64,000 nucleotides of DNA from an uncultured Mycoplasmatota bacterium (GCA_900546715.1 UREA01000004.1:7395-71394); one strand, 5' to 3'. Positions 1,572-59,765 are shown, counted from the first letter of the stretch. Made by a program: numbers and translations. Notes: generated by a model not told the origin, from the letters alone.

Positions 1572-1596
1572 AAAAAGCACAAAAATTAGTGCTTAA
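1572..1596 (-). terminator. Putative terminator of the spoVA operon
   Basis: Hairpin AAGCAC-aaaaatta-GTGCTT, followed on the minus strand by a U-tract (plus-strand aaaaagaaaaaa). Confidence 0.45.
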
Positions 1597-1597
1597 A

Positions 1598-1948
1598 TTA
1601 ATTCTTAGGTTTAGCCACTAAAGATACTAAAAAGGCAAATATTATAGCTCCAGCAATAGCAGCTGATGATTTGGTAAACATATTAGAAAATATCCCTAGT
1701 ATTCCTTCCGCCATATACCCCTGAATTGCAGCCTGATAAAGCATATGACCAAAATTTGATATTAACACTGTTGCTCCAGCTCCAAATTTAACAACTAAAT
1801 CATCATATACTCCAAGAAATGAAAGTAAGGCTCCAATTGCAGTATAAATACTTGTAATATGTCCTGGCGTAAGTTTGGTATTATCTAAAATAATCTGGGC
1901 TATTGCACAAGCAAATCCGGCGAATAAAAAGGCATTTAGAAAATTCAT
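1598..1948 (-). CDS. spoVAE: Stage V sporulation protein AE (SpoVAEb-like small membrane protein)
   Basis: 116-aa hydrophobic protein immediately downstream of spoVAD. This size and position are typical of SpoVAEb. Confidence 0.75.
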   Translation of the reverse strand: MNFLNAFLFAGFACAIAQIILDNTKLTPGHITSIYTAIGALLSFLGVYDDLVVKFGAGATVLISNFGHMLYQAAIQGYMAEGILGIFSNMFTKSSAAIAGAIIFAFLVSLVAKPKN

Positions 1949-2925
1949 TATTCCACCTCCAAACTTACAGCATGAGCAATCGCAGGAATACTCATTTTTT
2001 GATTAACAAATGTTGTTGAGTGCAAAGCTCCAGTTCCAATAATTAATATTTTTTTATATTTTTTACTAGTTAAAATTTTACAAAATAAAACTAAAGGCAG
2101 ACAAGCAGGTCCACTACCACCAGCATAAGTTTCTTGACTATCTAAAAATAATTCACAACCGGCATCCATATAATTTTTGAGTTGAACATTATAATTTTTT
2201 TCTAAATAATCTTGAAATATTTTACCCCCAACACAACCTAAATCACCAGTTAAAATAAGATCATAATAAGAGGCCTCTCTTTTTAAATCCGTTAAATGTC
2301 GCATTAATGTTGATGCTGCAGCGGGTGCCATAACTGCTCCCATATGGTTAGCATCACTTATATCCATATCAATGGCTACACCAATTGTTGATGATTCAAT
2401 TTTTATCTTACTTTCTCTTTTTCCAACTAAAGTGGCAATAGCACCAGTTGTTGTAAATGTTGAAGTGTGAGGCCTTGGTGCTCCATATTCTACTGGATAC
2501 CTAAATTGTTTTTCCGCTGTTAAATTATGCGAACTAACTACGGTAATAACTTTTTTAAAACCACTACAGTCAACAAAATTACTAGCAAGTATTAATTCTT
2601 CAGGAAATGTTGCACAAGCCGAATACACCCCTAAAAATGGGATATTATAATTTTTAGCATTATAGCTAGAAACAGCAATTTGATTAGTTAAATCCCCTCC
2701 AACTAATAAATCTATATCAGAATCATTTAAACTATTACGATGCATTAAATTATTAACTACATCTTCTTGCATCTTAACCTCAGCTTGTTCAAAAGTTTTT
2801 TCTTTATAATAATAATCATCCATAGATAAATTATATTTTTTTAAATGACTTTCTTTTTCTAATGGTCCAACAATTGTAAAATAATCATCTAAATAGACAT
2901 TCTTATATTTCTTACTAGACACCAA
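1948..2925 (-). CDS. spoVAD: Stage V sporulation protein AD (thiolase-fold)
   Basis: 325 aa, matching the SpoVAD length/family. Start is coupled to the spoVAE stop and lies in a spoVAC-D-E array. Confidence 0.8.
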   Translation of the reverse strand: MVSSKKYKNVYLDDYFTIVGPLEKESHLKKYNLSMDDYYYKEKTFEQAEVKMQEDVVNNLMHRNSLNDSDIDLLVGGDLTNQIAVSSYNAKNYNIPFLGVYSACATFPEELILASNFVDCSGFKKVITVVSSHNLTAEKQFRYPVEYGAPRPHTSTFTTTGAIATLVGKRESKIKIESSTIGVAIDMDISDANHMGAVMAPAAASTLMRHLTDLKREASYYDLILTGDLGCVGGKIFQDYLEKNYNVQLKNYMDAGCELFLDSQETYAGGSGPACLPLVLFCKILTSKKYKKILIIGTGALHSTTFVNQKMSIPAIAHAVSLEVE

Positions 2926-3352: not shown

Positions 3353-3386
3353 ATTATCACCTAAACTTATTGTGTCGCTATTTTTC

Positions 3387-4034
3387 TTACATATACATAA
3401 AATCTCGCATTTTTTTCAAACTTTTTGATTCATACCTCGATACCATTACTTGTGTAATACCAAGTTTTCTAGCAGTCTCACTTTGCGTTAAATCTTCATA
3501 ATATCTAGCTTTTATAATATCTTGTTCTAAAGTATCTAGAGAATCAATACTATCTTGAAGCAGTATTTTATCATCTACTGTTACATCTTCTTCTTTATAT
3601 AAAACCTCATGTAAACTTCGCTCATCACTTTCTTCATCAATAGAAACTAAAGAATTCGTATATTCTATTGCATTATTTAAAGTATTTAAATCAATTCCTA
3701 GAAACTCTGCTAATTCCTCATTACTAGGATTACGCATTAATTCTTGGGCCATCATACATCTACCCTTTTCAATTAGTTTATTAAGTTTAATTATATCTTT
3801 ACTTACCTTAATACTTTTATTACTAGCAACCATATACATTTCCCCATAAATATACTTGTAGGCGTATGTACTAAACTTACAATCTCCATCGCATTTATAA
3901 TTGTTATAAGCTTTAATAACCCCTAAAACTCCTGCTTGATATAAATCACTTTTAGGTATTCCATAAAACTTTTTAGCAATCGTCCAAATAAGTCCAGCAT
4001 TTTCTTTAACTATTTCCTCATACATAAGCATCAC
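3387..4034 (-). CDS. sigF: Sporulation-type sigma-70 family sigma factor (SigF/SigG group)
   Basis: Region 2 (FSTYAYKYIYGEM), VKVSR and the region 4.2 HTH (ARKLGITQVMVSRYE) align with SigF/SigG. It overlaps the upstream STAS gene and is followed by spoVAC/D/E, the layout seen in clostridial sigF operons. Confidence 0.75.
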   Translation of the reverse strand: MMLMYEEIVKENAGLIWTIAKKFYGIPKSDLYQAGVLGVIKAYNNYKCDGDCKFSTYAYKYIYGEMYMVASNKSIKVSKDIIKLNKLIEKGRCMMAQELMRNPSNEELAEFLGIDLNTLNNAIEYTNSLVSIDEESDERSLHEVLYKEEDVTVDDKILLQDSIDSLDTLEQDIIKARYYEDLTQSETARKLGITQVMVSRYESKSLKKMRDFMYM

Positions 4035-4338
4035 CCATATATTTTATTTTTCTTACTCTCAAATCTTTTATTTTATCTTTTATTTCTTTATCACAACCCC
4101 ACACTTTCATACATCCATTACTACTTTTAACTAAATATTTAGCTCTTTTTAATGAATCAAGTCCAACTTCATCGATATCTCTTAAATGAATTAAAATTAA
4201 TATCAAATTACTTATCTTATGTTTTTTAAGTATCGGATTTAAATAATTATTTATCTTATAACAATTTCTTTTATTTAATACACCTTTTAAATAAACATAT
4301 AAAGTATCATCTTTATATTCTAAATTCATTTTTAACAT
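4018..4338 (-). CDS. spoIIAA: STAS-domain anti-sigma-factor antagonist (SpoIIAA-like)
   Basis: 106 aa, consistent with SpoIIAA size/STAS fold. The canonical phospho-acceptor DSSG reads DEVGLDSL here. Confidence 0.6.
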   Translation of the reverse strand: MLKMNLEYKDDTLYVYLKGVLNKRNCYKINNYLNPILKKHKISNLILILIHLRDIDEVGLDSLKRAKYLVKSSNGCMKVWGCDKEIKDKIKDLRVRKIKYMGDAYV

Positions 4339-4406
4339 AATTTTTCTCCTTACATATTTAATATAGAAGAAAAATAATCATTTTTAAACACTTTCGACAA
4401 AACAAG

Positions 4407-5932: not shown

Positions 5933-6244
5933 TTAGTTTTCATCACTTAATACTATTTGTTCTTTTTCTTCTTTTACTTCTGTTGTTTCATATAATCTTT
6001 TTCTAATATCGTGTATTATTTGAATAATTTCTCCGACTGCATAAATAAATACAAATGAAATTACAATTCCTATTACCGCTAAAACAATTGTTAAAAAAGG
6101 TATTTCTACAGTGCCATTAAAAGTAAAAATAACAATGAATAATATAAACATACCAACCACTAAATCAACCCACGCTATACATTTAATTGCATATGCCACC
6201 ATATTTGTTTCCCTAATAATTTTTTCATTTTCCACTTTAACCAA
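5933..6244 (-). CDS. Small hypothetical membrane protein
   Basis: 103 aa with two hydrophobic helices. Sits in a coding-dense minus-strand context. Confidence 0.45.
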   Translation of the reverse strand: MVKVENEKIIRETNMVAYAIKCIAWVDLVVGMFILFIVIFTFNGTVEIPFLTIVLAVIGIVISFVFIYAVGEIIQIIHDIRKRLYETTEVKEEKEQIVLSDEN

Positions 6245-8586: not shown

Positions 8587-9447
8587 TTACTTCTTTTCAA
8601 TATTTATAGAACCTGTTTTTTCCAATTCTACTTCTTCTTTACGATAATTAAGTGCCATACCTATAGTAAATACATAAGCAAGTATGTATATCCAGATCAT
8701 TAACATAACAATATTGGCAAGACTTCCATAAAATGTTGAGTAATATGCGATATTGTTGATATAAAATGAATAACCATAAGTTATAATTATCCAAGAAATA
8801 CTTGTAAATATTGCCCCATATCCGACATTTTTACTCTTTATTCTTTTATTTGGAGCAATAGTATAAAGTATTTTTATAAAGAAATACATTATTAACCAAG
8901 TAACAGGACCTTGCAATAATCTTATGATAGTTGTTACTTTATCAGTAATTGAACTATTTAAATCAACATACTCGAATAATTCAATAATTTTATCCCCAAA
9001 AACTGGAACTATTAGCATAAATATGAAAAGTAATACTAAAAATATTGTCATAATAATTGATTTTAATCTTCTTTTAAAGAAACCAGTTTGTTTTTCACCA
9101 TAAATAGCATTAGATGTAATAATAATAGATGCTGGTCCATTAGATGCCGTATAGTAACCTACAACTAAAGTTATTACTAAACCTAAACCTGAAGCACTTG
9201 ATTCTGGAATATTTAAAAGCATTGATGCAATATCTTTGGAAAAAGCATTAGCTAAAAAATCATATATTACATCGGTTGATAAATTAAGCAAGCTTGCTCC
9301 ATAACTAATAAGTGTTATAGTAGGAACAATAGCAAGCACAAAGAAAAAAGCCAGTTGTCCAGGAAGTATTGCCATCTCCGGCCTTTTTAAAACTTTTATA
9401 AAATTATCAAAAAATTCTTTAACCTCACTTTTTAACTTCTTTTTCAT
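8587..9447 (-). CDS. YihY/BrkB family polytopic membrane protein
   Basis: N-terminal ...RPEMAILPGQLAFFFVLAIVPTITLISYGASLLN... and six TM helices, typical of the YihY family. Confidence 0.75.
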   Translation of the reverse strand: MKKKLKSEVKEFFDNFIKVLKRPEMAILPGQLAFFFVLAIVPTITLISYGASLLNLSTDVIYDFLANAFSKDIASMLLNIPESSASGLGLVITLVVGYYTASNGPASIIITSNAIYGEKQTGFFKRRLKSIIMTIFLVLLFIFMLIVPVFGDKIIELFEYVDLNSSITDKVTTIIRLLQGPVTWLIMYFFIKILYTIAPNKRIKSKNVGYGAIFTSISWIIITYGYSFYINNIAYYSTFYGSLANIVMLMIWIYILAYVFTIGMALNYRKEEVELEKTGSINIEKK

Positions 9448-11446
9448 TTTTTATGGCACCCTTTTGTTTCTTCATATCTTCAACCGCTTCATTCATGGCA
9501 TCTTCAATAGTTTTTATATCATCTTCAATTATACTATATCCAAATTCTGCTCCAAAGTCATATGGTAATTTCTTTATTTCTTTATTTAATTTATGAATAT
9601 AATTAGTTATTTGTTTTTGATTGTAACCTACTAAATAAATAACAAATTCATTACCATCAGTACGCATTATTTCACTATTATCAAGTTGAGTTTTAATTAA
9701 AACATTAGCACATGCTTTAATTTGTTTATCCCCTTCATTATAGCCATTTAAATCATTAATTTCTTGAATTTTATTTAAATCTACTACTATTATAGTTTGT
9801 GGATAAATTGTATTATTATTCCATGTTGCAATATTTTCGTTTAAATAATTTCTATTTTTTAAAGATGTTAATTGATCAATAAATTTCATTTTATCATCTT
9901 TTTTAATCTTTCTCGCAATCGAAATCTTTTTACTTTTACGAATAATTATTAGAACAATTATTATAGCTATAATAACTGCATATAAAATGTATTCAGCTAC
10001 TTTTGTAACAATTCCGCCACTTTGAACAGTTTCACTATGGTTATTAAGTCCTTCTAAAATCATTTCATCTTGATCTAAGAAACTTACATATTTATCAAGT
10101 AAATTATATAAAGCACTATCAGTTCTTACTTTAAAATTATATTCATCCCCAATATAATCACTATATCTTGCTGAATAGTTATCTAACTCATCTAAACTAT
10201 AATAATCAAAAGTATTTTTATCTATTACTAAAATTACATCTCTTTTATTTAATTTAAATAAATCTTTTGTTGTACTAAATGTTTCAACATTTATACCATT
10301 AATATTGCTAATATAATCATATATTTTAGAGTTTTCTTGTACATATACAGTTTCTCCAATTAAAGAATTAATTGATTTTATAACCATATTATTATCTTTT
10401 CGTAAAGCAACACTATATTCGATATTTATTCCATTTGTAGCATTAAAATTATCGGAATAATTATAATAGTTAAAATATAAATCGACATCACCATTTTCTA
10501 CAGCATTCATAAATCTATCATAATTACGGTATTTTTCAAAATTAAATTCTACTCCCGCAAAATCACTGAATTTACTTAAAACAACCGCAGCAATTCCGCC
10601 GTATTTTCCCCCCATAATAACTTCATAAGGAGATGCATTAACAAAACCATAATTATATTCAATACTTTGCATTGAATCTATTTCCGTTGCTGATATATTT
10701 AAAGAAGTTGTAAAAGTATTAAATAAAGCTTCGTTATATAATGTATCAATTTCTTCCCAATTATTATAAAACTTTCTTAAAATGCTACTTAAAGTATCAT
10801 CTGTAGTTTGCATTGTATAATATATTTTAATATCACTAAAATGGTATAAGATATTATAATTATTACTTAAAATAGTATCTAAATAATAAGTTAAAGGTAC
10901 TATAGCATAAGTTACATCAGTTCCTATGGCATTAAATAATTCTTCACTAGATTCATATTGGGTAAATGTAACATTTGTAGAATTTATATAAGTTGATACA
11001 TAACTTAAATCACTTGTTAAAATACCTATTGTTCTACCTATTAAATCATCAGTATCACTAATTATTTCATTATTAGTACCAATTAACGCGTAGTGATCTG
11101 TAAAAAATACTACATCATTATTTCCTACACTAGTTTTAGCACCTAATGTTATACCTGATGGATTAGTTCCATTTCTAAATGTTATAGGATTAATATTTAA
11201 GCCATATTCTTCTTCAAAATCCTCTATAAAGCCATAAAACACTCCACTACCATTTTTACCAAAAACATTAGCATCATCCAAAACATTAATATTTGGTACG
11301 GTATTAATATTTTCATTTATCCAATTGCGTTCGGCAACAGTTAATTTATTTTCATCATTTAAAAGAAAATATAAAAGGATTGCAATACCTATAACAACTA
11401 GTGCACTTACAACTATAACAATTATATTTCGTCTTTTTTTCATCAC
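9425..11446 (-). CDS. Membrane protein with large extracytoplasmic domain and C-terminal degenerate GGDEF domain (RTDGNEF)
   Basis: N-terminal TM, a ~450-aa external region, a second TM, then a GGDEF fold (LTSLKNRNYL ... RTDGNEF in place of RxGGDEF). Confidence 0.7.
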   Translation of the reverse strand: MMKKRRNIIVIVVSALVVIGIAILLYFLLNDENKLTVAERNWINENINTVPNINVLDDANVFGKNGSGVFYGFIEDFEEEYGLNINPITFRNGTNPSGITLGAKTSVGNNDVVFFTDHYALIGTNNEIISDTDDLIGRTIGILTSDLSYVSTYINSTNVTFTQYESSEELFNAIGTDVTYAIVPLTYYLDTILSNNYNILYHFSDIKIYYTMQTTDDTLSSILRKFYNNWEEIDTLYNEALFNTFTTSLNISATEIDSMQSIEYNYGFVNASPYEVIMGGKYGGIAAVVLSKFSDFAGVEFNFEKYRNYDRFMNAVENGDVDLYFNYYNYSDNFNATNGINIEYSVALRKDNNMVIKSINSLIGETVYVQENSKIYDYISNINGINVETFSTTKDLFKLNKRDVILVIDKNTFDYYSLDELDNYSARYSDYIGDEYNFKVRTDSALYNLLDKYVSFLDQDEMILEGLNNHSETVQSGGIVTKVAEYILYAVIIAIIIVLIIIRKSKKISIARKIKKDDKMKFIDQLTSLKNRNYLNENIATWNNNTIYPQTIIVVDLNKIQEINDLNGYNEGDKQIKACANVLIKTQLDNSEIMRTDGNEFVIYLVGYNQKQITNYIHKLNKEIKKLPYDFGAEFGYSIIEDDIKTIEDAMNEAVEDMKKQKGAIKNEKEVKK

Positions 11447-17045: not shown

Positions 17046-18104
17046 TCACTTAATATCTTTAGGAAATACTTTCATTGCTGCACTTACTATTTCTAAAATT
17101 AATTTATCTAATTTTTGCATATCAAACTCTGATACTTCATACCACTTTGGTTTATTCATTTTCTTATTTAAATAACGATTTTGTAATTTGAAAATATAAA
17201 TATATGGTAATACTTCATAAAAATAATTAGAATCATTAATATTTGTCTTTTCCAAATGCATTTTAAAACCTAATATTTTTGCTAGTAATTTATTTCCTAA
17301 ATCGGTTCTTTTAACAAATCGATCACTTATAAAAATCATAATAAAAATACACACTAAACCTATTAAGTAAAATAACAAGTAATTGCCATTTAACATAGGA
17401 ATAAACATATAAATCGGAAAAGCTCCCATGATTAAAGCAAAAACACAACCAAATATTATAGCACTTAACCTCCGAGCCTTAATGCTACCAGTATTTACAT
17501 CTATAGGTTGTCGAGAAGTTATAGTATAAAACAAAACTGTAAAACCAATACTTGGAAATAATAAACAAATAATCAATGAAGAAATATCACCATAATTCGA
17601 AATAGGAATATAAGTAATTATAAAATATGTAGCAATAATCATTAAAACAATTAACCAAAATACCCAAGATGGAGTTTTACAAAATATTTTTTCATCAAAT
17701 TCTTTATATTTCATTTTACTTGACATTCTAGATAAAATAACTAGAGTATTATGATAACTAATAACATCTAAATTAGCAAATAAGTTATCCATAAATGCTT
17801 TTTCATTATAATCATCACCATTATAATCCTTTAGCTTTACTACCTCTAATTCGCTTACACTATTAAATAATGTAGTTGTTTGTTTTTCAACAATTTTTAT
17901 ATATCCTTTGCTACAAAGCTCAATTAGCATTAATCCCAAGGCATCACCACATAGCTTTTTTCTGAACACATACATTGCATCCGATATATTAATATTTGGT
18001 GGATACATTTCTTCTTTTATATCTGTTTTTTTATTTTTGCCATAAATAATCCATAAAATTAGTGTTATAATCAAAGATATTAGAGGAACAATAATCATTA
18101 CCAT
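17046..18104 (-). CDS. N-terminally truncated DUF2207-family paralogue (TM plus cytoplasmic portion only)
   Basis: Aligns with the post-TM half of the two upstream DUF2207 proteins (EEMYPPNINISDAMYVF.. vs NPPDNLSSLEIAFLYKG..). It lacks the N-terminal ectodomain and the Gly tail. Confidence 0.55.
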   Translation of the reverse strand: MVMIIVPLISLIITLILWIIYGKNKKTDIKEEMYPPNINISDAMYVFRKKLCGDALGLMLIELCSKGYIKIVEKQTTTLFNSVSELEVVKLKDYNGDDYNEKAFMDNLFANLDVISYHNTLVILSRMSSKMKYKEFDEKIFCKTPSWVFWLIVLMIIATYFIITYIPISNYGDISSLIICLLFPSIGFTVLFYTITSRQPIDVNTGSIKARRLSAIIFGCVFALIMGAFPIYMFIPMLNGNYLLFYLIGLVCIFIMIFISDRFVKRTDLGNKLLAKILGFKMHLEKTNINDSNYFYEVLPYIYIFKLQNRYLNKKMNKPKWYEVSEFDMQKLDKLILEIVSAAMKVFPKDIK

Positions 18105-19948
18105 GAACCTCCACCTCCCCCACCAGAGCCACCGCCAGTTATACCTCCTCCAGATGAAGAAGATGATGATGAATCATAAGTTACACTTGAGGCAACACTT
18201 GATGTTGTTGTACTTATATAATTATTAAATGTTATTATATCAAAAGCACCACTACCACTATACCAAGATGGTGCAGATAAAGCAATACTTTCAAAATTCT
18301 TAAACCATTTATCAGATACACCTAAAACATAAGTATAAGGTAAGATATCATAAAAATATTCGGGATTTTTATCAACCAAAGCTTCCAACTGCTCTTTTTC
18401 AGCTGTTTCTAAAAATTTTTTAAAACCTAATATTCTACCATAAATTTTATTGCCAAAATCAGTTCTAAAATTAAAAGAAAAAGCCCAATAAATTATAATA
18501 ACTGAACATATCACTGATATTATTGATGACATTATTGATAAAGTACCATACATATATTGATAATTAGTTGCTACAAAAAACATTATAGCAAAAGCAACAA
18601 TAAATATTGAAATAACAATTTTAGTAGCTACTGTATATTTAGTTTTAAGTACTAAAACAATTACTATTGCTAAAAATAATATAGTTATAATATTACCTAT
18701 TAGAGCTTCTGATGAATAGTAATTAATAAAAATTAATATGTTTGTTATACTAATAGATAAAAAAGCACATAAAATATATAAAAATTTATATGTTTTATTA
18801 GAACTTAAAAATAATTGTTGTTTATTTGTTGGAGAATTCATTTTATTTTTTATATCATATACCGCAGTGTATAATTCATCTGCTATATCTTCCACCATAA
18901 TTTTATTGCCATTTTTAAATAAGGATTCCATAAATAAATACTCTTCATGTTTATTACCGTCATAATCTTTTAATTTTATTATTTGAGTTGTAGTATAATC
19001 AGTATTTAAACTTTTAGTTGTTACCTCTTCTATTTTTAAATACTTTTTATCAGCAAGATAAACTAATAAAGAAATTACATCTTTATTTGTTACACTACCT
19101 TTATATAAAAAAGCTATTTCTAAACTATTATAATCATCTGGAGGATAAAATTCTATAGTATCAACTATTCTTACACTTCTCTTTTTTATATATAAAATTA
19201 ATCCCGCAATTATTACACTAATAATAGGTATAATTATTGCTATAAAATTATTTATACCATAATTAGATTTAGCTTCACTAAAGTACCCTTCAGGAAGTTC
19301 TAGTCTAACAGTTAAGGCATCACCTTCATATAACGGTGTATTTAATGATCCCCTTATAGTATTTCCAGATACTTCATAACTCACACTATTTGTTGAAAAA
19401 CTTTCAGGTCCATTAGAAAACCCTAATAAACTTTCATCAAATTCTTCTGGCATATTAATAGTAAATGTAACATTTGTAATAACAGTTTCCCATTCTGGTC
19501 CAATTATATTAAAATAAAATTCATCTTTGTCTTTTAAAGAATCCTTACCAACATTATAATTATATTTAATAACATATTCTTGATAACCCGTTACTAAATT
19601 ATTAGCATCTCCTAAACGAATAACCAAATTACCATCAGATTTTGATTGTGTGCTAAAAACATTAGTATAAACATTTGAAACATTAACATAATTATTCGTT
19701 GTTGTTCCATCTAATCTACTAACACGATTTCTAAGTGGAATACTTCTATATATTCCATGTCTTGCTTGATTAAAATATACTCTTATTTCTTCTGTTATAT
19801 CAAATGAATTATCTTTATTAACATCAATAACTACATTATAATCATCAATATAATAATCATAATTATCATATAACCCTTTCGCATTAGTTAAACTGATAAA
19901 GCTAACAAATAACATAACTAATAAATATTTTATTTTTCGCATTACCAT
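18098..19948 (-). CDS. DUF2207-family membrane protein with C-terminal Gly-rich tail
   Basis: Signal peptide, ~220-aa ectodomain, multi-TM region and a ...SSGGGITGGGSGGGGGGSW tail. Paralogue of the neighbouring gene; lemA-adjacent. Confidence 0.7.
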   Translation of the reverse strand: MVMRKIKYLLVMLFVSFISLTNAKGLYDNYDYYIDDYNVVIDVNKDNSFDITEEIRVYFNQARHGIYRSIPLRNRVSRLDGTTTNNYVNVSNVYTNVFSTQSKSDGNLVIRLGDANNLVTGYQEYVIKYNYNVGKDSLKDKDEFYFNIIGPEWETVITNVTFTINMPEEFDESLLGFSNGPESFSTNSVSYEVSGNTIRGSLNTPLYEGDALTVRLELPEGYFSEAKSNYGINNFIAIIIPIISVIIAGLILYIKKRSVRIVDTIEFYPPDDYNSLEIAFLYKGSVTNKDVISLLVYLADKKYLKIEEVTTKSLNTDYTTTQIIKLKDYDGNKHEEYLFMESLFKNGNKIMVEDIADELYTAVYDIKNKMNSPTNKQQLFLSSNKTYKFLYILCAFLSISITNILIFINYYSSEALIGNIITILFLAIVIVLVLKTKYTVATKIVISIFIVAFAIMFFVATNYQYMYGTLSIMSSIISVICSVIIIYWAFSFNFRTDFGNKIYGRILGFKKFLETAEKEQLEALVDKNPEYFYDILPYTYVLGVSDKWFKNFESIALSAPSWYSGSGAFDIITFNNYISTTTSSVASSVTYDSSSSSSSGGGITGGGSGGGGGGSW

Positions 19949-21813
19949 GCACCTCCTCCGCCACCACCGGAGCCGCCACCAGAAAAACCTCCACCAGAAG
20001 ATCCTCCAAATGATGAACCATCAAAGAAATCATTATTATCATTACTAGAAGATGGACCACCATGCATAACCATTGTTCTAAGCATCTTCGGTGGTCTACT
20101 CAAATCATTTATCGTACTATTAATACTTTGATTAAAGAATGCTATATTAAATCCTTCATGACTTTCAAACCAATAAGTAGGTTCTAATATAATATGTTCA
20201 AATCTTTTAATCCATATATCAGATATTCCTAAAACATAAGCATAAGGCAAAATATCATAATAATAATTTGGATGTTCTAATACAATTTTTTCTAATTCGC
20301 TTACTTCCACTAGTGAGATATACTTTTTAAAACCTAATATTTTTCCATACATCTCTTTACCATAACTTGTTCTACTTAAAAAATCTTTATTCAAAAGTAA
20401 AATAACAATCATACAAATAAAGCTTACTACCATATTAATAATAAATACTTGCCTTGATACAACAAAATCTTTTAATGAAAACCAAATAATAAATACTGCA
20501 AATCCAAATATAAATAAAATATCTAAAAACTTTAAAAAGTCACTCTTAATATGCTTTGCGGCATAATATAAAGGTATTAAAACTACCAAAGACATACAAA
20601 AGGCAATCAACATTAATATCGGTGTTGGATGAAAATCTTTAATTTGCAAATATACGGCACTAAGTACACATAAAACTGCCATTAAACCAAAAATTCCTTT
20701 GTAAAAACTATTATCTTCTTTTATAATTCTAGCTCTATTTTCTTTAGTATTAGTAATTGTTTTAATAATACTTGTTGTTTTATAAAAAGAATATTTTAAA
20801 TCTTCAATATCTACTCTATCACCATAAATAAATAATCCTCGCATGAATTCCTTAATTGCATTATCATCTTTATCATATTCTCTTAATTTAACAACGCTCA
20901 AAGTATTTTCCTCTTCTATTAATTTAATGTATTTTTCATTAGCTAAATATATAAGAAGTGATATTATATCTTTATCATTAACTTCCCCTTTATATAAAAA
21001 TGCTATCTCTAAACTAGATAAATTATCTGGGGGATTAAGTTCTACTGGTTTAACTAAATGTCGTAAAACTAAAAAATAATATAATAATAAAGCTAATACT
21101 ACAAGTATTATTGGAATAACAAAACTTAAAATCGTATTAGTATTATAAATATTAGTAGCTTCACTAAAATACCCCTCTGGTAAACTAAGTCTCACAGTTA
21201 AACCTTCAAAAGCACTTAATGCTTCTGTTGTATAACCACTAATTACATTCCCATTTACATTATATATAACTTTATTAGTTGTACTTCCATAGCTACCTGT
21301 AGAAAACCCTAATAAACTTGCATCGAATTCTTCTGGCATAGTTATAGTAAAATTAACTTTATTAATTGTTGTATCCCATTTTGTTCCAATAATATTATAA
21401 TAAAATTCATCTATATCTTTTAAAGGATCTTTTCCAATATTATAATTATATTCTATTACATAGTTTTTAGCCCCTCTTACATAAGTATTAGCATCCCCAA
21501 TAACAAGTTGATAATAACCATCACTAATCTTAGTAGTATATTTTTCATTTACTTCTACATTACTTATTAAAACATTATTTCTAGAACTTGTTCCATCTGT
21601 TCTAATAACTTCATTATGCATTGGAATATAGCGATATATCCCATGTTTATCAGTATTAAAAAATACTGCAATTTCTTCTCTTATATTATAAGAATTATTT
21701 TTTAAAACATCAATTTCTACATTATACTCATCAATATAATAATCTAAGGCATTAACATTTTTTACTCCTAATACACATATTAACAAACAAAATAAAATCC
21801 ACTTTATCTTCAT
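19942..21813 (-). CDS. DUF2207-family membrane protein with C-terminal Gly-rich tail
   Basis: Same architecture as 18098..19948 (..GGSSGGGFSGGGSGGGGGGAW). Start overlaps the lemA stop. Confidence 0.7.
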   Translation of the reverse strand: MKIKWILFCLLICVLGVKNVNALDYYIDEYNVEIDVLKNNSYNIREEIAVFFNTDKHGIYRYIPMHNEVIRTDGTSSRNNVLISNVEVNEKYTTKISDGYYQLVIGDANTYVRGAKNYVIEYNYNIGKDPLKDIDEFYYNIIGTKWDTTINKVNFTITMPEEFDASLLGFSTGSYGSTTNKVIYNVNGNVISGYTTEALSAFEGLTVRLSLPEGYFSEATNIYNTNTILSFVIPIILVVLALLLYYFLVLRHLVKPVELNPPDNLSSLEIAFLYKGEVNDKDIISLLIYLANEKYIKLIEEENTLSVVKLREYDKDDNAIKEFMRGLFIYGDRVDIEDLKYSFYKTTSIIKTITNTKENRARIIKEDNSFYKGIFGLMAVLCVLSAVYLQIKDFHPTPILMLIAFCMSLVVLIPLYYAAKHIKSDFLKFLDILFIFGFAVFIIWFSLKDFVVSRQVFIINMVVSFICMIVILLLNKDFLSRTSYGKEMYGKILGFKKYISLVEVSELEKIVLEHPNYYYDILPYAYVLGISDIWIKRFEHIILEPTYWFESHEGFNIAFFNQSINSTINDLSRPPKMLRTMVMHGGPSSSNDNNDFFDGSSFGGSSGGGFSGGGSGGGGGGAW

Positions 21814-22352
21814 AGTTTTACATCCACATTTTCTCTCTCTTCGGCTTCCGCTTCAAACATATTTTTTTGTTTGTAACCAAATATTTTAGCCACAATATTA
21901 CTAGGTATCATTTCAACTTTATTATTATACATTCTAACAACAGCATTATAATATCTTCTAGATTTTGCTATCTCATCTTCTACATCACTAAGTTTAGTAC
22001 TTAAATTTAAAAAGTTCTTATCAGCTTTAAGCTCCGGATAGCTTTCTGCTAAAGCCATAATTTTCGTAATACCACTACTTACTTGTTCATTAGTATCCAA
22101 CTTTTCTTTATCTGATAAACTATCATAACTACTTCTTAAATGTATAACTTCTGTAAGTGTATCTTTTTCATGTTTAGCATAACCCTTAACAGTTTCTACT
22201 AAATTAGGTATTAAATCCCATCTTTTCTTTAAAGAAACATCCATTGTTGAAAATGCTTCATCAACATCATTACTAAGTTTAATTAAACTATTCCAAGTAA
22301 TTAAAATATAAATTATTATTAAAACAATTATTCCACCAATAACAAAAAACAT
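21810..22352 (-). CDS. lemA: LemA family protein
   Basis: N-terminal TM plus LemA pattern ..WNSLIKLSNDVDEAFSTMDVSLKKRWDLIPNLVETVKGYAKHE..; 180 aa. Confidence 0.8.
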   Translation of the reverse strand: MFFVIGGIIVLIIIYILITWNSLIKLSNDVDEAFSTMDVSLKKRWDLIPNLVETVKGYAKHEKDTLTEVIHLRSSYDSLSDKEKLDTNEQVSSGITKIMALAESYPELKADKNFLNLSTKLSDVEDEIAKSRRYYNAVVRMYNNKVEMIPSNIVAKIFGYKQKNMFEAEAEERENVDVKL

Positions 22353-22483: not shown

Positions 22484-22930
22484 ATGAATAATCAAAATTC
22501 AAACAGCAATGGAAATTGCATTAATGAAATATTATGTGTAATTTTAGTACTACAAGAAAATGCATGTCCAGATAACTGTTTACAAACTTGTGATAGACCA
22601 GTACTCGGCGGAGGAACTAATTGTATAGTATGTAACACTAGACCAGTAATGCTTTATACTTGCTGCGGAAATGGCGTTCCATGGAGTATGCCAATAACTA
22701 AAGATTCAACAATAAGTTGTGCAGGATCTGATATTAGTACTACTTGCTCAAATGTCTTTAGAGTAGAAAAGATTGAAGGAAATTGTTGTACATTTAGAGT
22801 TCTTGCTGAAAATACAGATACTACTAGTTTATTTCCATATGTAGCTACTAATGTCTTCTTCACAATGGATTGTAGTTGTTTGTGCAGTATAAGATGTCTA
22901 TCTGATACATTTGTAGATTGTGTTTGTTAA
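22484..22930 (+). CDS. Cysteine-rich spore coat/exosporium protein, CotY/CotZ/ExsY family
   Basis: 148 aa with 23 Cys. VFRVEKIEGNCCTFRVL and C-terminal CSCLCSIRCL resemble CotZ FFRVERVHGSCATLSLL / CFCAINCL. Confidence 0.65.
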   Translation: MNNQNSNSNGNCINEILCVILVLQENACPDNCLQTCDRPVLGGGTNCIVCNTRPVMLYTCCGNGVPWSMPITKDSTISCAGSDISTTCSNVFRVEKIEGNCCTFRVLAENTDTTSLFPYVATNVFFTMDCSCLCSIRCLSDTFVDCVC

Positions 22931-24748: not shown

Positions 24749-25171
24749 CTAGCTATTTAATTCTATTATTTCTTCTTTAGTCATATAAACTATTCGCTCT
24801 TCATTTATAATATTATTATTTTGATAATCATGATATTCTTTTAACAAGTCATTAAGTTTTTTTGAAGATAATGTATCCTTAGTTCTTCTGAATTTTGACA
24901 ACATTGTACAATTTTCTATAGTTAATTTTGTATTTAATTGAGCATAACTATCTTCATATAAAACAGTTTCTTTTGGATTTTCTGAATTAATAAAATAGTT
25001 ATATTTATGATACAAATTGTGTAATTTTCCGGCTGTTTTATCAATTGCTATTATTTCAATATAATTATCTTTAATATCCGCAATTAACATTGGATGTTCA
25101 ATACTAGCAACTTGATCTATTTGATATCTCACTTTCAACCACAATATTTGCCCCACTTTTAAATCATTCAT
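24749..25171 (-). CDS. Putative toxin partner of the Panacea-domain protein (uncharacterized 140-aa protein)
   Basis: Translationally coupled (ATGA overlap) to the upstream Panacea gene. No recognizable domain; the N-terminus has a weak PemK/SH3-like pattern VGQILWLKV...HPMLIADIKDNYIEII. Confidence 0.4.
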   Translation of the reverse strand: MNDLKVGQILWLKVRYQIDQVASIEHPMLIADIKDNYIEIIAIDKTAGKLHNLYHKYNYFINSENPKETVLYEDSYAQLNTKLTIENCTMLSKFRRTKDTLSSKKLNDLLKEYHDYQNNNIINEERIVYMTKEEIIELNS

Positions 25172-25650
25172 AATTTTAATGCTTCTATTAATCCTTTATA
25201 TCTTTTTTTGTATTCAGCAATGTTGTCCTCAATATTCATTATAGGTGCATTATATGTATTATTGCTTAATTTCTGCCATGTTGGATCTTCATGAGTAATT
25301 TCAATTAATTCATCAAATGTAGCATTCTCTAAAGATATATATATCTTATCTAAAAATTGCTTGTCGGAATCATTTATGTTAACCATACTATTTTGATTAA
25401 TCATTAACCCATATGATTTTACAATATCTTCAATTACTGGACCATTATCATATGCTTTAAAATCATCCTTAAATAATCTTTTATTATATAATGCCAAATA
25501 TACAACTTGAGCTAAAAATAAATATTTATTAATTCTTATATTACCTTCATATGATTTTCTACCATTATAAACAACTACATTTTTGTTGAACAATTTTCGC
25601 TTTGAGTCTTTAGATAAAAAATACATAGCCACATCTTTAGCACTCAACAT
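25168..25650 (-). CDS. Panacea-domain (DUF4065, SocA/GepA-like) protein, putative antitoxin
   Basis: ..NIRINKYLFLAQVVYLALYNKRLF...FKAYDNGPVIEDIV matches the Panacea signature (KLxKLLYxAQ ... GPV). GAGGTGA RBS 7 nt upstream of the start. Confidence 0.6.
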   Translation of the reverse strand: MLSAKDVAMYFLSKDSKRKLFNKNVVVYNGRKSYEGNIRINKYLFLAQVVYLALYNKRLFKDDFKAYDNGPVIEDIVKSYGLMINQNSMVNINDSDKQFLDKIYISLENATFDELIEITHEDPTWQKLSNNTYNAPIMNIEDNIAEYKKRYKGLIEALKL

Positions 25651-50592: not shown

Positions 50593-51467
50593 TTATTTTG
50601 CATTCATTATTTTTTCTTTTACCTTCATAATTAATTTTTTTACAATGAGGTCTCTTGAATGTAAATCATTATTCTTACCCAATAATAAGTTTTCATAAAA
50701 CTTTATTAAGAAACTATTATCTTGTTTTATATTTAAATAATTATTAAAGTAATTACTTCTTACTAGTGCATTTCTATAATAAACAGATTTATCTTTGAAC
50801 ATAGTATTATCTACCGTATATCCAAGCGATATTAGATTAGATACTTTTCTATAAATAGTGCAGTAGTTCTAGTATTACCTTCTCTAAATGGGTGGACCTG
50901 CCACAAATTAGAAGAAAAACTAGTTATATTATTAATCACATCAACCATATTCAATTCTTTATAATTTTTCATTTTTTCTAATGATATATCATAATCTAAT
51001 GATTGCTCTAAAAATCTACAATCACCATAAGCAACTGAATCATTATATAAAATTCTTTCATGTTTAGAAAAATCTACTTTTCTAAATTCTCCAGCAAATT
51101 CGTATACATCCTTGAATAAAAATTTGTGAATATATTTTATATAGTCTACTGATAATTCAAAATTATCTTCTTCTAATAGCTCAACAATTCTCGTAGAAAC
51201 TAAATCGCATTCAAATTCATCCCAAACTATTTCATCTGATTGATCTTTTTCTACATAATATCGTTTTAATTCATGTTCAACTTCATAAATGGTTTTCTCA
51301 CCTGTTACATTTTCTTGTAATAACTTTTCTAAATACTTAGATGGCTTTAAATTATCAACTTCTTGAAGTCCAATTGCCATATCCCACTCTTGTTGTTTTA
51401 TATTATTTTTAGGTGTCTTTGTTTCAACATAATTATTTACACTTGAATCTAATTCTTTTTCAGACAT
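50593..51467 (-). pseudogene. Fic/Doc-family protein gene disrupted by a frameshift near 50830
   Basis: ORF 50832..51467 ends just after the Fic motif HPFREGNTRTTALFIEKYLI. The expected C-terminal remainder (..SLGYTVDNTMFKDKSVYYRNAL..) continues in another frame, through ORF 50593..50802. Confidence 0.55.
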
Positions 51468-51551
51468 TCTAACATCTCCATTTATAACAGTATACCAAAA
51501 AGATTTCTATTTGTCATTGATATACAGATTTTATAAGACGATATTTATTTT

Positions 51552-52454
51552 TTAAATATCAAGTTCCTTTGCATATTTAAAATCAACAATCTCTCCATCT
51601 TTGGTTTTGATCCAACCAATAAACTTATGAGACCAATCTGACAAATCTTTAGCACTCTTTCCCTTAAATTCATCAATTATTTTATCTAATACTTTTATTT
51701 CATTTTCATTAAAACAAGACAAATCAGCATCTTGAAGAGGTGCAAATAACATAGCTGAATCATCAACTGATGAAGCAAGCTTAATATAATCTTGTTTAAT
51801 TAATAAGTTAAGTAAGGCATCTTGATTATTAACAATTGGACCAAATGGCGCATGAGCATATTTAAAATTACTTATTGCTTTATTAAATAATTTATAATTT
51901 AGAAAATCAGATGCAAATAAATATTTCATTAATTGTGTTCTATTTAATATAACTTTATTAAGTATATATAAAATTACATTAATACTTTTATAATCAATAT
52001 CAACATTTATTCTATCTAATATTTTATAATATTTTTCTTTAGATAAATTTTTATTATTTTTTAAAATATTATAAATATTATCTTTATTATTTAATAGGCT
52101 TATATAAGTATCAAGATATTCTTTCTGTGGCAGTGATTTGGCATTTTCATATCTTGTTATTGTTTTTTTACTCCACCCAAGAGCTTCCGCAAATAACCCT
52201 TGAGATAAATTTAGTGACTCTCTTATTTCTTTTAATTTTTCAAAACTTAAACCAAATAAATTTAAATAAGCAACATTTATATCATGTACAAACACATCAT
52301 AATCATCAAAATCATATTCAGTTTCACATATTGGACAAGTAAAAACTCTTTCATCAATCACAACATTTTGACCATGAATATTATGATTAGTTTTTTCAAC
52401 CCTTACTTCCACCATTACATCTTTATCACATTCAAAACAATACATTTTTTCCAT
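51552..52454 (-). CDS. Zinc-finger/HTH(XRE)-Panacea(DUF4065) fusion protein, putative autoregulated antitoxin
   Basis: N-terminal CFEC...CPIC zinc ribbon (MqsA-like), an HTH (LSQGLFAEALGWSKKTITRYE), and a C-terminal Panacea signature (..RTQLMKYLFASDF...FKYAHAPFGPIV). Confidence 0.6.
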   Translation of the reverse strand: MEKMYCFECDKDVMVEVRVEKTNHNIHGQNVVIDERVFTCPICETEYDFDDYDVFVHDINVAYLNLFGLSFEKLKEIRESLNLSQGLFAEALGWSKKTITRYENAKSLPQKEYLDTYISLLNNKDNIYNILKNNKNLSKEKYYKILDRINVDIDYKSINVILYILNKVILNRTQLMKYLFASDFLNYKLFNKAISNFKYAHAPFGPIVNNQDALLNLLIKQDYIKLASSVDDSAMLFAPLQDADLSCFNENEIKVLDKIIDEFKGKSAKDLSDWSHKFIGWIKTKDGEIVDFKYAKELDI

Positions 52455-56545: not shown

Positions 56546-58012
56546 CTATTTTTTCTTTTTATTTTTCTTCTTCTTTTTATTATTGTTTATATTATCATAA
56601 ACTATTGAATCTTGTTTAGTTTTATCATCTTTTTTCTCTTCAATTATCTGTTCTTTTTTATTTTCCCCCTTCATTTCTTTTACATTATCTTTTTCTTTAA
56701 GAACATTCCCTTTAATTTCTTTATTTTTATTCTTATGTTTCTTTTTACCTCTTAAAGCACATATTAATATGATAAACATTAAAACAAAAAGACCAATAAA
56801 TCCAAATATAATATAAGTATATAAATTTATTTTTTCATTTAAAGTATTAATCATCTCATCATCATATTTTATAGCACTTTGATCAATCTTATCATATTTA
56901 AAGAATCCTTCTTCACCAGTTTCTACATTAATACCATAAATAATTGCAAATCTAGAGTCATCACCAACATAAAAAGAATTAACTAGTATATCATTAATCG
57001 TTATCGTTCCACTTTTATATCCTTCTAATACTTTATCAGTACTCATTGGATAAATTGTTAAATTACTTAATTTGAGTTCATTATAAATTTTATAAGTATT
57101 ATCTTCTGCATTATATATATAAAGAGCAATATTACCTTCTTCATCTTTAAGACCTACTAAAGTAAAACCAGTTAGTTCTGATGTATATGCCGGTATTTCA
57201 AAATCATTAATATTTACTGTTGTCTCTTGATAAGCATTAACCTGCGGCAAATAATCTTTTATTTTAACAACTGTTAAATTTTTATCATATACTACTACAT
57301 TTATGGGATTTTCATCTTTAACTTCAACTGTTAAAGTATATGTTTTTTCACTACCATTTTCAGCTCTTACAACAATTTGAAAAGTATTAGTACCTTGAGT
57401 TACTGTTTGTGTGCCCGCCCCAGTTACACTTGCAGCACTATCATTTTCTTCAGCATTAATAGTTATTTCTGTTGTATTTTCTGGCACAACTACACTATAT
57501 TCTGTTACATCTTTATCAAATTCTGGTGATATTTCAAAGCCTTCAACTGATAAACTTTTTAAATCATTATCTTTTGAATATGATGCTTCTAATTCTTCTT
57601 GAGTCATAATACGAACATTTTTAGTCCCCGCACTTAAATCCATAGCACTCATATCTTCATAAGCATATGCCGAATAACTACTCATACTAATCTTAGTTCT
57701 CCCACTTTTTAAAGCTCTAAATCTAAATGTATAACTTTTACTTTTAGTACCAGAAGAAGAATTAACCATACTTACTCCTCCACCTTCACTATTGGTACTA
57801 ATAAGTTCTAAATAATTGCGATCATAATTTAAATCCATATCCCAACTACCAATTGGTGTTGAACTTGACAGTGTTACTGTAATAGATACTGTATTTCCTA
57901 CAACAGCACTTGATGTACCTGTAATTTTTATACTTCCTGATGCTGCACTAACACTAATAGGAAAAACCACTAAACAAATCAAACTAATTATTATTGTCTT
58001 TAAATGTTTCAA
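56546..58012 (-). CDS. Membrane-anchored surface protein with N-terminal cohesin-like domain and cadherin-like beta-sandwich domain
   Basis: Signal peptide, then a cohesin-like pattern (VGNTVSITVTLSSSTPIGSWDMDLNYDRNYLELIS). A cadherin-like domain follows (LKSLSVEGFEISPEFDKDVTEYSVVVPENT...). C-terminal TM and a KKKK tail. Confidence 0.55.
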   Translation of the reverse strand: MKHLKTIIISLICLVVFPISVSAASGSIKITGTSSAVVGNTVSITVTLSSSTPIGSWDMDLNYDRNYLELISTNSEGGGVSMVNSSSGTKSKSYTFRFRALKSGRTKISMSSYSAYAYEDMSAMDLSAGTKNVRIMTQEELEASYSKDNDLKSLSVEGFEISPEFDKDVTEYSVVVPENTTEITINAEENDSAASVTGAGTQTVTQGTNTFQIVVRAENGSEKTYTLTVEVKDENPINVVVYDKNLTVVKIKDYLPQVNAYQETTVNINDFEIPAYTSELTGFTLVGLKDEEGNIALYIYNAEDNTYKIYNELKLSNLTIYPMSTDKVLEGYKSGTITINDILVNSFYVGDDSRFAIIYGINVETGEEGFFKYDKIDQSAIKYDDEMINTLNEKINLYTYIIFGFIGLFVLMFIILICALRGKKKHKNKNKEIKGNVLKEKDNVKEMKGENKKEQIIEEKKDDKTKQDSIVYDNINNNKKKKKNKKKK

Positions 58013-58028
58013 TATTTATCCTCCTTTT

Positions 58029-59765
58029 TTATTGAACAATTTCATATGTACCTAAAATATATTTTTGTATTTGTAATAAATCTAGGGCATTAATTACTCC
58101 ATCACCAGAAGTATCTCCAGCAAGTGCATATACATCTGATAAACTATATGTTTCTAAAATATATTTTTGTACTTGTAATAAATCTAGGGCATTAATCACG
58201 CCATCACCAGAAGTATCTCCTTTAATAGCAATCTTTAAAGTTTCACTTCCAGTTGCATTAGCAATTTTTATTTGCATACCTGTTGTAACTGTTCCTGTTT
58301 GAAGTTCATTACCATTACTATCCATAATAATTACAGTATTATAACCAGATACTGATTCTATTGCTCCTTTAATAGTATTAATATCACTTCCTACACTAAC
58401 ACCAGTCATGTAACCACTTTGATATTTATAACCGCTGGATGTTACAATAGTACTTATTGGTAAATTACTTAAGCTTGAATCTGGTTCATCCCCAGTTGCT
58501 CCATTATTACTATTATTAATTGTTGAATTCATATTTGTAAACACAGGAATATAAAACACATATGCTTGTGATAAAATTCCCAAATCACTATAAGACTTAT
58601 ATGTAGATGCTGATTCACTTGAAGGTGCTGCAATATTTGTTTGATATTGATGAGTAAATTGCGAATTCATATCTGTAGGAACTAAATTAAATTTTTGTAA
58701 ATATGTAGTATATTGTCCAGCATTAATATAACTAGAAGAAATAAAACTTGCTCCACCAGCTAAAGCATTTTCCAAACCATACCAATTATGATCTTTAGCA
58801 TATTCTAAACCACAATAAGTTGCCCCATTAGTTGTAGCACAAGAATCACTTACTCCATAATTATAAAAATTATAATAACCTTCATATCCAGGATAAACTC
58901 CACTATATAAATTATAAAGACTTGTTGATGTTCCCATTTCTTGTAAAATGCGTGATGCCAAAAAGGTTGGACTTACATCAAGAGTTGAACCAACATTATC
59001 AATAATAACACCTAAATCATTTCCTAAATTAGCATGATATGTATAAAATGCTGCACTATCTATTATAGCTTTAACACTATTTGGATAATATGGTTTTATT
59101 AAAGAAGAATACTTTAAATATTCAAATTGAAATATAAATCTATCTGATAAAAAATTACGAGGATCCATATAATATGCTAAGGCTTGTTGACTAGCATTCT
59201 TCCAAGAACTATCCCAACCATATTGATTATTACAAGATCGGTCCATAAAAGATTCATTTGTAGTTTGAATATAACTTTTACCGCAAGAACTTTCTCTTTG
59301 AACCGCATAACTCCAATCTAGATTAGTTTGAAGAGCTACAAATTGCCAATTAGGATACATTTCTTTTAAATGACATAAACCTCCCCAATAACTTGATGGA
59401 AATCCTAAATTACTCATTTCTATTTCACAAGTAGTACTTGGTGCGACATCATCAGTACTATGACTATAAACAACATCAACATGATCCCCACAAACATAAC
59501 CACTATCAACTCCATTATAATATATTTGATACCAATCACTATTACAATCATAATGATTATTAGTATCTTGATATGTTTTATCTTCTACCAAAGTATAATA
59601 TGAACCAATATATGCTGAAGAAATTTTAGTATTTTGTGTACCTGGACCAGTTCTTACATTACAAGAAGAATTGATATAAGCACGAGCAGTCGTAGCTGCA
59701 TTTGCATCAGCTAAAAATATAAACATAATTAAAAAACTAAATAATATATATTCAACTTTTTTCAT
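58029..59765 (-). CDS. Secreted protein with SH3b-like domain, central putative cell-wall hydrolase-like region and C-terminal type-I dockerin
   Basis: Signal peptide. The C-terminal duplicated segment GDTSGDGVINALDLLQVQKYIL / GDTSGDGVINALDLLQIQKYIL is a canonical dockerin double Ca-binding repeat. Confidence 0.65.
   Translation of the reverse strand: MKKVEYILFSFLIMFIFLADANAATTARAYINSSCNVRTGPGTQNTKISSAYIGSYYTLVEDKTYQDTNNHYDCNSDWYQIYYNGVDSGYVCGDHVDVVYSHSTDDVAPSTTCEIEMSNLGFPSSYWGGLCHLKEMYPNWQFVALQTNLDWSYAVQRESSCGKSYIQTTNESFMDRSCNNQYGWDSSWKNASQQALAYYMDPRNFLSDRFIFQFEYLKYSSLIKPYYPNSVKAIIDSAAFYTYHANLGNDLGVIIDNVGSTLDVSPTFLASRILQEMGTSTSLYNLYSGVYPGYEGYYNFYNYGVSDSCATTNGATYCGLEYAKDHNWYGLENALAGGASFISSSYINAGQYTTYLQKFNLVPTDMNSQFTHQYQTNIAAPSSESASTYKSYSDLGILSQAYVFYIPVFTNMNSTINNSNNGATGDEPDSSLSNLPISTIVTSSGYKYQSGYMTGVSVGSDINTIKGAIESVSGYNTVIIMDSNGNELQTGTVTTGMQIKIANATGSETLKIAIKGDTSGDGVINALDLLQVQKYILETYSLSDVYALAGDTSGDGVINALDLLQIQKYILGTYEIVQ

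Follow-up and report, generated by a model that had tools for sequence, protein, structure and literature searches.

A spoIIA-Type Operon without a SpoIIAB Gene and with an Unconstrained Phospho-Acceptor Position in a Clade of Uncultured Gut Bacilli

A 64,000-nt stretch of DNA from an uncultured Mycoplasmatota bacterium carries a sporulation operon in which the gene for a SpoIIAA-type STAS protein runs directly into the gene for a σF-like factor, with no SpoIIAB kinase gene between them and with glutamic acid in place of the SpoIIAA phosphoserine. We read this as the spoIIA operon of a clade of uncultured, low-GC gut Bacilli, which has been cut from spoIIAA-spoIIAB-sigF to STAS-sigF and in which phospho-partner-switching has been abandoned, a reading to which we assign a probability of roughly 0.55. 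The narrower statement, that the serine phosphorylation cycle of the SpoIIAB kinase and the SpoIIE phosphatase no longer controls σF, is very probably correct.

The SpoIIAA/SpoIIAB/SpoIIE phospho-switch is the textbook route to the first compartment-specific σ factor after asymmetric division, and as described it cannot work here. A large and widespread gut clade keeps the rest of the operon without the switch, which contradicts the wide assumption that the switch is universal. If σF is controlled more simply in these organisms, they provide a natural experiment on the minimal needs for cell-specific activation; the alternative is that the module has been repurposed. Under either reading, predictors that use spoIIAB as a marker will give wrong calls for the organisms of this clade.

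Results

The STAS and σ-Factor Genes Overlap Directly

The window (that is, the whole 64-kb stretch that was analyzed) has a GC content of ∼26%, and its minus strand carries nearly all of the genes. Matches to Pfam and NCBIfam families give the gene order STAS, σ factor, spoVAC, spoVAD, spoVAE, and recA, with a gene for an LCP-family transferase upstream of the STAS gene. These matches agree with the preliminary description of this DNA, which had placed spoVAC/D/E downstream of the σ-factor gene, and the STAS and σ-factor open reading frames have exactly the coordinates given there. In window coordinates, the features of the operon are:

4393-4399, minus strand: perfect Spo0A box, TGTCGAA, 4 nt upstream of the −35-like hexamer
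4383-4388, minus strand: −35-like hexamer TTTAAA, weak
4360-4365, minus strand: −10-like hexamer TATATT, good, at a 17-nt spacer from the −35-like hexamer
4360-4399, minus strand: putative operon promoter (consensus scan), made up of the 0A box, the −35-like hexamer, the 17-nt spacer, and the −10-like hexamer
4018-4338, minus strand: STAS gene (SpoIIAA type, 106 aa)
3387-4034, minus strand: σF-like gene (215 aa from GTG 4034)
3368-3396, minus strand: putative forespore-type promoter, GTATA-N17-CACAATA, upstream of spoVAC and overlapping the σ-factor stop codon
2915-3352, minus strand: spoVAC (PF03862, E = 1.6e-25; TIGR02838, 130 bits)
1948-2925, minus strand: spoVAD (PF07451, E = 6.5e-107)
1598-1948, minus strand: spoVAE, SpoVAEB type (PF03862, E = 1.2e-24; TIGR02839, 107 bits)
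1575-1594, minus strand: terminator-like hairpin after spoVAE (consensus scan)

The STAS and σ-factor genes overlap by 8-17 nt, depending on which start codon the σ factor uses, and neither a third gene nor the remnant of a pseudogene can therefore fit between them. Candidate starts are GTG 4034, ATG 4031, and ATG 4025. The last of these is preceded by GGTGAT and is the start used by public gene calls on identical contigs, where it yields a protein of 212 aa and an overlap of 8 nt; 212 aa is probably the length of the σ factor. A consensus scan found no terminator-like site between the σ-factor gene and spoVAC, and an Rfam scan of the 64-kb window returned no match. All of the sporulation proteins of the operon score under the NCBIfam equivalog cutoffs.

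The STAS Protein Is a SpoIIAA Homolog by Sequence Profile and Fold

The STAS protein matches the Pfam STAS family (PF01740) with E = 7.3e-7 and 29.4 bits, compared with a gathering score of 22.6. Against the SpoIIAA equivalog model TIGR02886 it scores 26 bits, far below the cutoff of 114.75; by this measure the protein is a homolog of SpoIIAA, not an "equivalog." A family profile built from 34 members matched the SpoIIAA structures with E = 1.7e-14 (1TH8_B) and 7e-12 (Bacillus subtilis SpoIIAA, 1AUZ) and the RsbV-like TM1442 with only 1e-3. An AlphaFold2 model with the family alignment as input (pLDDT 92.9) gave the same assignment, as its top Protein Data Bank matches in Foldseek are SpoIIAA chains from SpoIIAB complexes (1THN_B, 1TH8_B, 1TIL_B, and 1TID_B; TM scores 0.86-0.89, rmsd 1.8-2.0 Å), the best of them being 1THN_B (TM 0.89, rmsd 1.8 Å). 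The UsfX–RsfB complex, 8IH8, is also among the matches. Profile and predicted fold together thus identify the protein as a true SpoIIAA homolog.

Far from decaying, the STAS gene evolves under purifying selection. Its dN/dS ratio between relatives is 0.08-0.4, not far off the 0.02-0.17 of the σ-factor gene. The pair of loci L013 and L014 gives 0.09 at a dS of 0.95, and the pair L018 and L019 has a pN of 0.036 with synonymous sites saturated.

Two properties of the STAS protein that might have hinted at its mode of action proved unhelpful. A redox switch, by analogy with RsfA, would call on the cysteines of the protein (Cys26, Cys76, and Cys82). Relatives do not conserve Cys26 or Cys76, and only the closest of them have Cys82; the idea was rejected. 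Charge complementarity between the STAS protein (pI 9.6) and the σ factor (pI 4.9) is uninformative, because a canonical clostridial SpoIIAA is also basic.

The Phospho-Acceptor Position Is Unconstrained

The preliminary description had proposed that the DSSG phosphorylation site of SpoIIAA reads DEVG in the STAS protein, and had named a conserved serine at a shifted position as the finding that would overturn this. The alignment to SpoIIAA upholds the substitution. The phmmer alignment with Geobacillus stearothermophilus SpoIIAA is ungapped and sets M-D57-S58-S59-G60 opposite I-D56-E57-V58-G59. The first serine, S58, is taken as the acceptor because it is the S58A variant that was crystallized in 1TID, and the 34-member family profile has the same register, with Ser58 replaced by Glu57. 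In the AlphaFold model helix α2 starts at residue 57, and E57 lies in its first turn, where Ser58 of SpoIIAA sits. Alignment, profile, and model therefore concur that the acceptor position is Glu57; the window protein has no phosphorylatable serine at the start of helix α2, while the flanking Asp56 and Gly59 are kept. No conserved serine was found at a shifted position either, the alignment being free of gaps, the structural model in agreement with it, and the acceptor column itself hypervariable.

The variability of this column is seen at two depths. Among 145 near relatives the acceptor residue is E in 104, D in 15, S in 10, N in 6, A in 6, Q in 2, and P and T in 1 each. The wider alignment contains the window protein and 131 full-length proteins that each represent a 50%-identity cluster and are the best-scoring of 727 matches at E ≤ 1e-3. 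In these 132 sequences the column has an entropy of 3.54 bits, ranks 6th in variability among the 106 columns, and holds E in 22 sequences, S in 18, K in 17, I in 16, L in 12, and N in 11, followed by others; serine or threonine occurs in only 23 of the 132 (∼17%). The columns on its flanks, by comparison, are near-invariant (0.29 bits for Asp56 and 0.35 bits for Gly59). Close relatives may differ at the acceptor position alone, with SS, AS, NS, PS, or QT. Such hypervariability is unlike that of a site that has to be phosphorylated. We conclude from the alignments that the acceptor position is unconstrained across the family and that close relatives mostly have Glu or Asp there.

A "phosphomimetic" glutamic acid was considered as a general reading of the substitution. 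It fits the near relatives, in which E or D accounts for 119 of 145 residues, but not the wider family, in which the site often holds K, I, L, N, Y, or M, and it is retained solely as a feature of the subclade.

The σ Factor Is Closest to σF

The protein encoded by the second gene contains Pfam σ70 regions 2, 3, and 4. Among the NCBIfam models SigF (TIGR02885) scores best with 144 bits, followed by SigG with 90 and SigB with 74, although the SigF equivalog cutoff of 321 bits is not reached. The best match in the Protein Data Bank is G. stearothermophilus σF (1L0O_C, 104 bits), and the next scores 60 bits. Alignment with a clostridial SigF indicates that ∼33 N-terminal residues of the canonical protein are missing. 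This shortening holds across the clade, in which the σ factor is 212-221 aa long compared with ∼250 aa for canonical, full-length SigF. Its gene lies downstream of a spoIIAA-type gene and upstream of the spoVA genes, as does sigF, the exception being one sublineage (L030), which lacks the spoVA neighbors. By sequence, then, the protein is closest to σF and keeps the ancestral spoVAC/D/E neighbors.

No Kinase Gene Is Found in the Window or the Clade Loci, and No Phosphatase Gene in the Window

A kinase HMM was made from three sequences (SpoIIAB from a Clostridia locus, RsbW from a Paenibacillus locus, and a SpoIIAB of B. subtilis) and was run against all stop-to-stop segments of the 64-kb window and of 21 loci, of which 19 belong to the clade. 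It recovered the two outgroup kinases alone and found no SpoIIAB or RsbW in the window or in the 19 clade loci. Neither HATPase_c_2 nor PP2C/SpoIIE domains were found when most of the window's other open reading frames were scanned against Pfam, or among the precomputed Pfam assignments for homologs of the window genes at 29-50 kb. The claim of the preliminary description that no kinase is encoded in cis is borne out: the STAS and σ-factor genes overlap, and no HATPase open reading frame was found in the window. The absence applies to the 64-kb window and to at most 10 kb on either side of each locus, and a HATPase gene was never adjacent to the STAS–σ pair in any neighborhood examined. In the window, the three components of phospho-partner-switching (antagonist, kinase anti-σ factor, and PP2C phosphatase) do not occur together. 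In a genome survey, Field, Bowerman, and Hugenholtz (2024) found spoIIAB and spoIIE reduced or wholly absent in the order RF39, and spoIIE in ML615J-28, a result that may not apply to the clade of the window (PMC10868615).

The Two-Gene Module Is a Trait of the Clade

One genome per GTDB species was scanned with the σ-factor protein, which yielded 14 loci of uncultured Bacilli with σ-factor identities of 51-99%. The closest locus, 99% identical in the σ factor, belongs to Candidatus Onthocola stercorigallinarum, a genus that NCBI lists as Bacilli incertae sedis; the others come from metagenome-assembled genomes (MAGs) of samples labeled goat, rabbit, and others. In all 14 GTDB loci the STAS gene is followed directly by a gene for a 212- to 216-aa σ factor, and then by spoVAC/D/E wherever the contig continues; every further metagenomic contig examined has the same two-gene order. 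Two outgroup loci of the same scan (L020 and L021) have the canonical set of three, and their phosphorylation site reads DSSG or DSTG.

The two-gene junction recurs in ∼40 independent contigs, which differ in study and host of origin. Protein searches returned >1000 related σ factors and 496 related STAS proteins, and in an exhaustive HMMER search 727 STAS cluster representatives passed E ≤ 1e-3, of which 179 also passed E ≤ 1e-10. Neighborhoods were looked up for members chosen by distance (P0340 and P0422) and for members that bear the serine (P0170, P0246, P0409, and P0392). The same adjacency was found in the distant members P0340, P0409, P0422, and P0392, and the four serine-bearing members are also without an adjacent kinase gene. 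One sublineage (L030) keeps the STAS–σ pair and has lost its spoVA neighbors. These observations establish the two-gene module as a trait of the clade and not an artifact. The source annotation of the relatives says no more than "STAS domain-containing protein [Bacilli bacterium]." The exhaustive STAS search also returned P0394, a 563-aa protein with three STAS-profile stretches and an SS-type loop, which is a multi-STAS protein from outside the clade.

A Spo0A Box Is Conserved Upstream of the STAS Gene

The putative operon promoter has the arrangement of a Spo0A-activated promoter, with a predicted 0A box beside the −35-like hexamer. Measured from the STAS start codon, the box falls between −59 and −74 in all 17 loci compared (range L006-L046), among them L030, L032, and L033, whose flanks otherwise do not align. 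Over the whole window TGTCGAA shows no enrichment, with 4 occurrences observed and 1.9 expected; it is therefore the conserved position alone that counts as evidence. Farther downstream, the motif GTATA-N17-CACAATA has what we take to be a resemblance to forespore σG/σF promoters, judged by the B. subtilis consensus. Matches to G[ACT]AT[AG]-N16-18-CA.A.TA were found at the same offset before spoVAC in 12 of 17 loci.

Discussion

The operon of the window resembles the spoIIA operon of Bacillus and Clostridium in its order of STAS antagonist and σF-like factor, in the spoVAC/D/E genes downstream (as in clostridia), and in the Spo0A box upstream. It differs in the loss of the middle gene, SpoIIAB, in the replacement of Ser58 by Glu, and in a σ factor that is shorter by ∼33 N-terminal residues, and no SpoIIE was found in the window. 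In Turicibacter sanguinis, which forms spores and belongs to the Erysipelotrichia, the three spoIIA genes lie side by side (J3478_01580, J3478_01575, and J3478_01570; PMC13492147); the nearest cultured relatives described keep the complete set. Single-domain STAS proteins whose output may run through partners other than a classical anti-σ factor have been described, namely SypA, RbaV, HmpV, and BtrV, which keep the conserved serine and the kinases SypE, RbaW, HmpW, and BtrW (PMC8256260). The same review gives a conserved serine and a partner kinase for every system that it treats, canonical or not. In contrast, the module of the window has lost both the conserved serine and the adjacent kinase. 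Like the organism of the window, the RF39, ML615J-28, and RFN20 lineages surveyed by Field et al. (2024; PMC10868615) are uncultured, host-associated Bacilli with reduced genomes. That survey, which puts the gene loss partly on record already, takes the form of a presence/absence table, without operon structure, the STAS phospho-site, promoter conservation, or mechanism. In the literature that we searched, no kinase-less STAS–sigF operon with a degenerate acceptor site is described, and, as far as that literature goes, the conserved two-gene architecture, the free acceptor position, the selection on an orphan STAS protein, and the conserved Spo0A box are new.

The preliminary description had left open whether control of σF is independent of a kinase, works by a rewired partner switch, or depends on an anti-σ factor encoded in trans. 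Because no shifted serine exists and the serine-bearing relatives are without an adjacent kinase as well, we favor the kinase-independent option. An anti-σ factor encoded elsewhere, whether SpoIIAB-like and possibly kinase-dead or unrelated to SpoIIAB, would leave the STAS protein in its role as antagonist, set by abundance, ligand, redox, or proteolysis, and one that does not phosphorylate the Glu57 site is possible. Such a partner would suit the retained SpoIIAA fold, the near-invariant Asp and Gly of the interaction loop, and the purifying selection on the STAS protein, and the visible DNA is a small part of each genome. Mycobacterium tuberculosis offers a precedent in UsfX, an RsbW-like protein without kinase activity that works with RsfA and RsfB, and control of the antagonist there is independent of phosphorylation by the anti-σ factor; RsfA is redox-regulated, and the complex of UsfX with RsfB is one of the fold matches of our model. 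In M. tuberculosis, however, the anti-σ factor is still encoded beside sigF, where the window has none, and the 64-kb window together with ∼200 kb of clade loci yielded no gene of this kind. The nonconserved cysteines also argue against a conserved redox switch. In known modules, moreover, antagonist and anti-σ factor are nearly always adjacent (PMC8256260), and spoIIAB is reduced or absent in RF39 according to the genome survey (PMC10868615). On balance we regard an anti-σ factor in trans as unlikely, though it is the main rival of our reading.

Rather improbable, in our judgment, is that sporulation is being lost in these organisms and that the STAS–σ pair is decaying or drives a regulon unrelated to sporulation, with a role for the STAS protein apart from σ control. 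Field et al. (2024) describe the orders of reduced-genome Bacilli as transition states with partial sets of sporulation genes (PMC10868615), and the SpoMAG machine-learning study, which has spoIIAB in all predicted spore formers, gives RF39 and ML615J-28 MAGs a sporulation probability of 0% (PMC12536801). The subcutoff equivalog scores of the operon's sporulation proteins, and the one sublineage that has lost the spoVA genes behind its σ-factor gene, point in the same direction. Against this stand the purifying selection on both genes, the strict conservation of the Spo0A box, the forespore-type promoter-like motif before spoVAC, the intact spoVAC/D/E genes, and the presence nearby of CotZ-, CotE-, SpoVS-, and YlbD-type genes. 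Persistence of the module over hundreds of 50%-identity clusters is likewise unlike decay. The chance that a kinase gene was simply lost from a single record by misassembly or frameshift is negligible, given that the overlapping frames leave no space for a remnant and that the junction is repeated in the independent contigs.

If the spoIIA operon has indeed been reduced to STAS-sigF and phospho-partner-switching given up, σF would still be switched on within a Spo0A-driven program, and the STAS protein would act by direct, stoichiometric protein binding. The mechanism that we prefer, and propose tentatively, is that it binds σF itself; the preference arises because the σ factor is the only conserved neighbor of the STAS protein and is always translationally coupled to it. 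The STAS protein might then serve as a holding or anti-σ-like factor on σF that is released or degraded after septation. Somewhat more doubtful is the full extension of this idea, in which a STAS protein of SpoIIAA descent now does the work of the anti-σ factor, giving a minimal STAS–σF module that provides forespore-specific activation without kinase, phosphatase, or phosphoserine; an unstable STAS protein, together with the short time during which the forespore lacks its gene, would be one possible route to such activation.

Other Features of the Window and Related Loci

Several further features of this DNA and of the loci of relatives were recorded. Among the few plus-strand genes of the window is an open reading frame for a 148-aa spore-coat protein of the CotZ family (22484-22930, plus strand; PF10612, E = 3e-11). 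In the loci of relatives, CotE and SpoVS are encoded near the module in L045, and YlbD and YlbE in L030. A 673-aa protein encoded at 9425-11446 (minus strand) has a C-terminal GGDEF domain preceded by 500 N-terminal residues without assignment, and occurs at the same position in relatives (L028).

Two genes with the SocA/Panacea antitoxin domain (50832-52454 and 24749-25650, both minus strand) resemble parts of toxin–antitoxin pairs. One of them is fused to a helix-turn-helix domain and adjoins a Fic-domain gene; the other adjoins a 140-aa open reading frame without a family match. At 56546-59765 (minus strand) the gene for a dockerin-domain protein, which also has an SH3 domain, adjoins that for a cadherin-like protein. 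The homologs of the latter in relatives carry a cohesin domain, which suggests a cohesin–dockerin pair in reduced-genome gut Bacilli, and cohesin/dockerin-type genes are also found upstream of the STAS gene in the loci L022-L025.

Three DUF2207 membrane-protein paralogs lie in a row directly 3′ of a LemA gene (17046-22352, minus strand), and a short DUF2207_C-like open reading frame is located at 5933-6244. A long cluster for cell-wall polysaccharide or teichoic acid occupies ∼27000-50500 on the minus strand, where the GC content drops to ∼22%; it includes glycosyltransferases, CDP-glycerol transferases, two ABC-2 exporters, and O-antigen-ligase-like genes.
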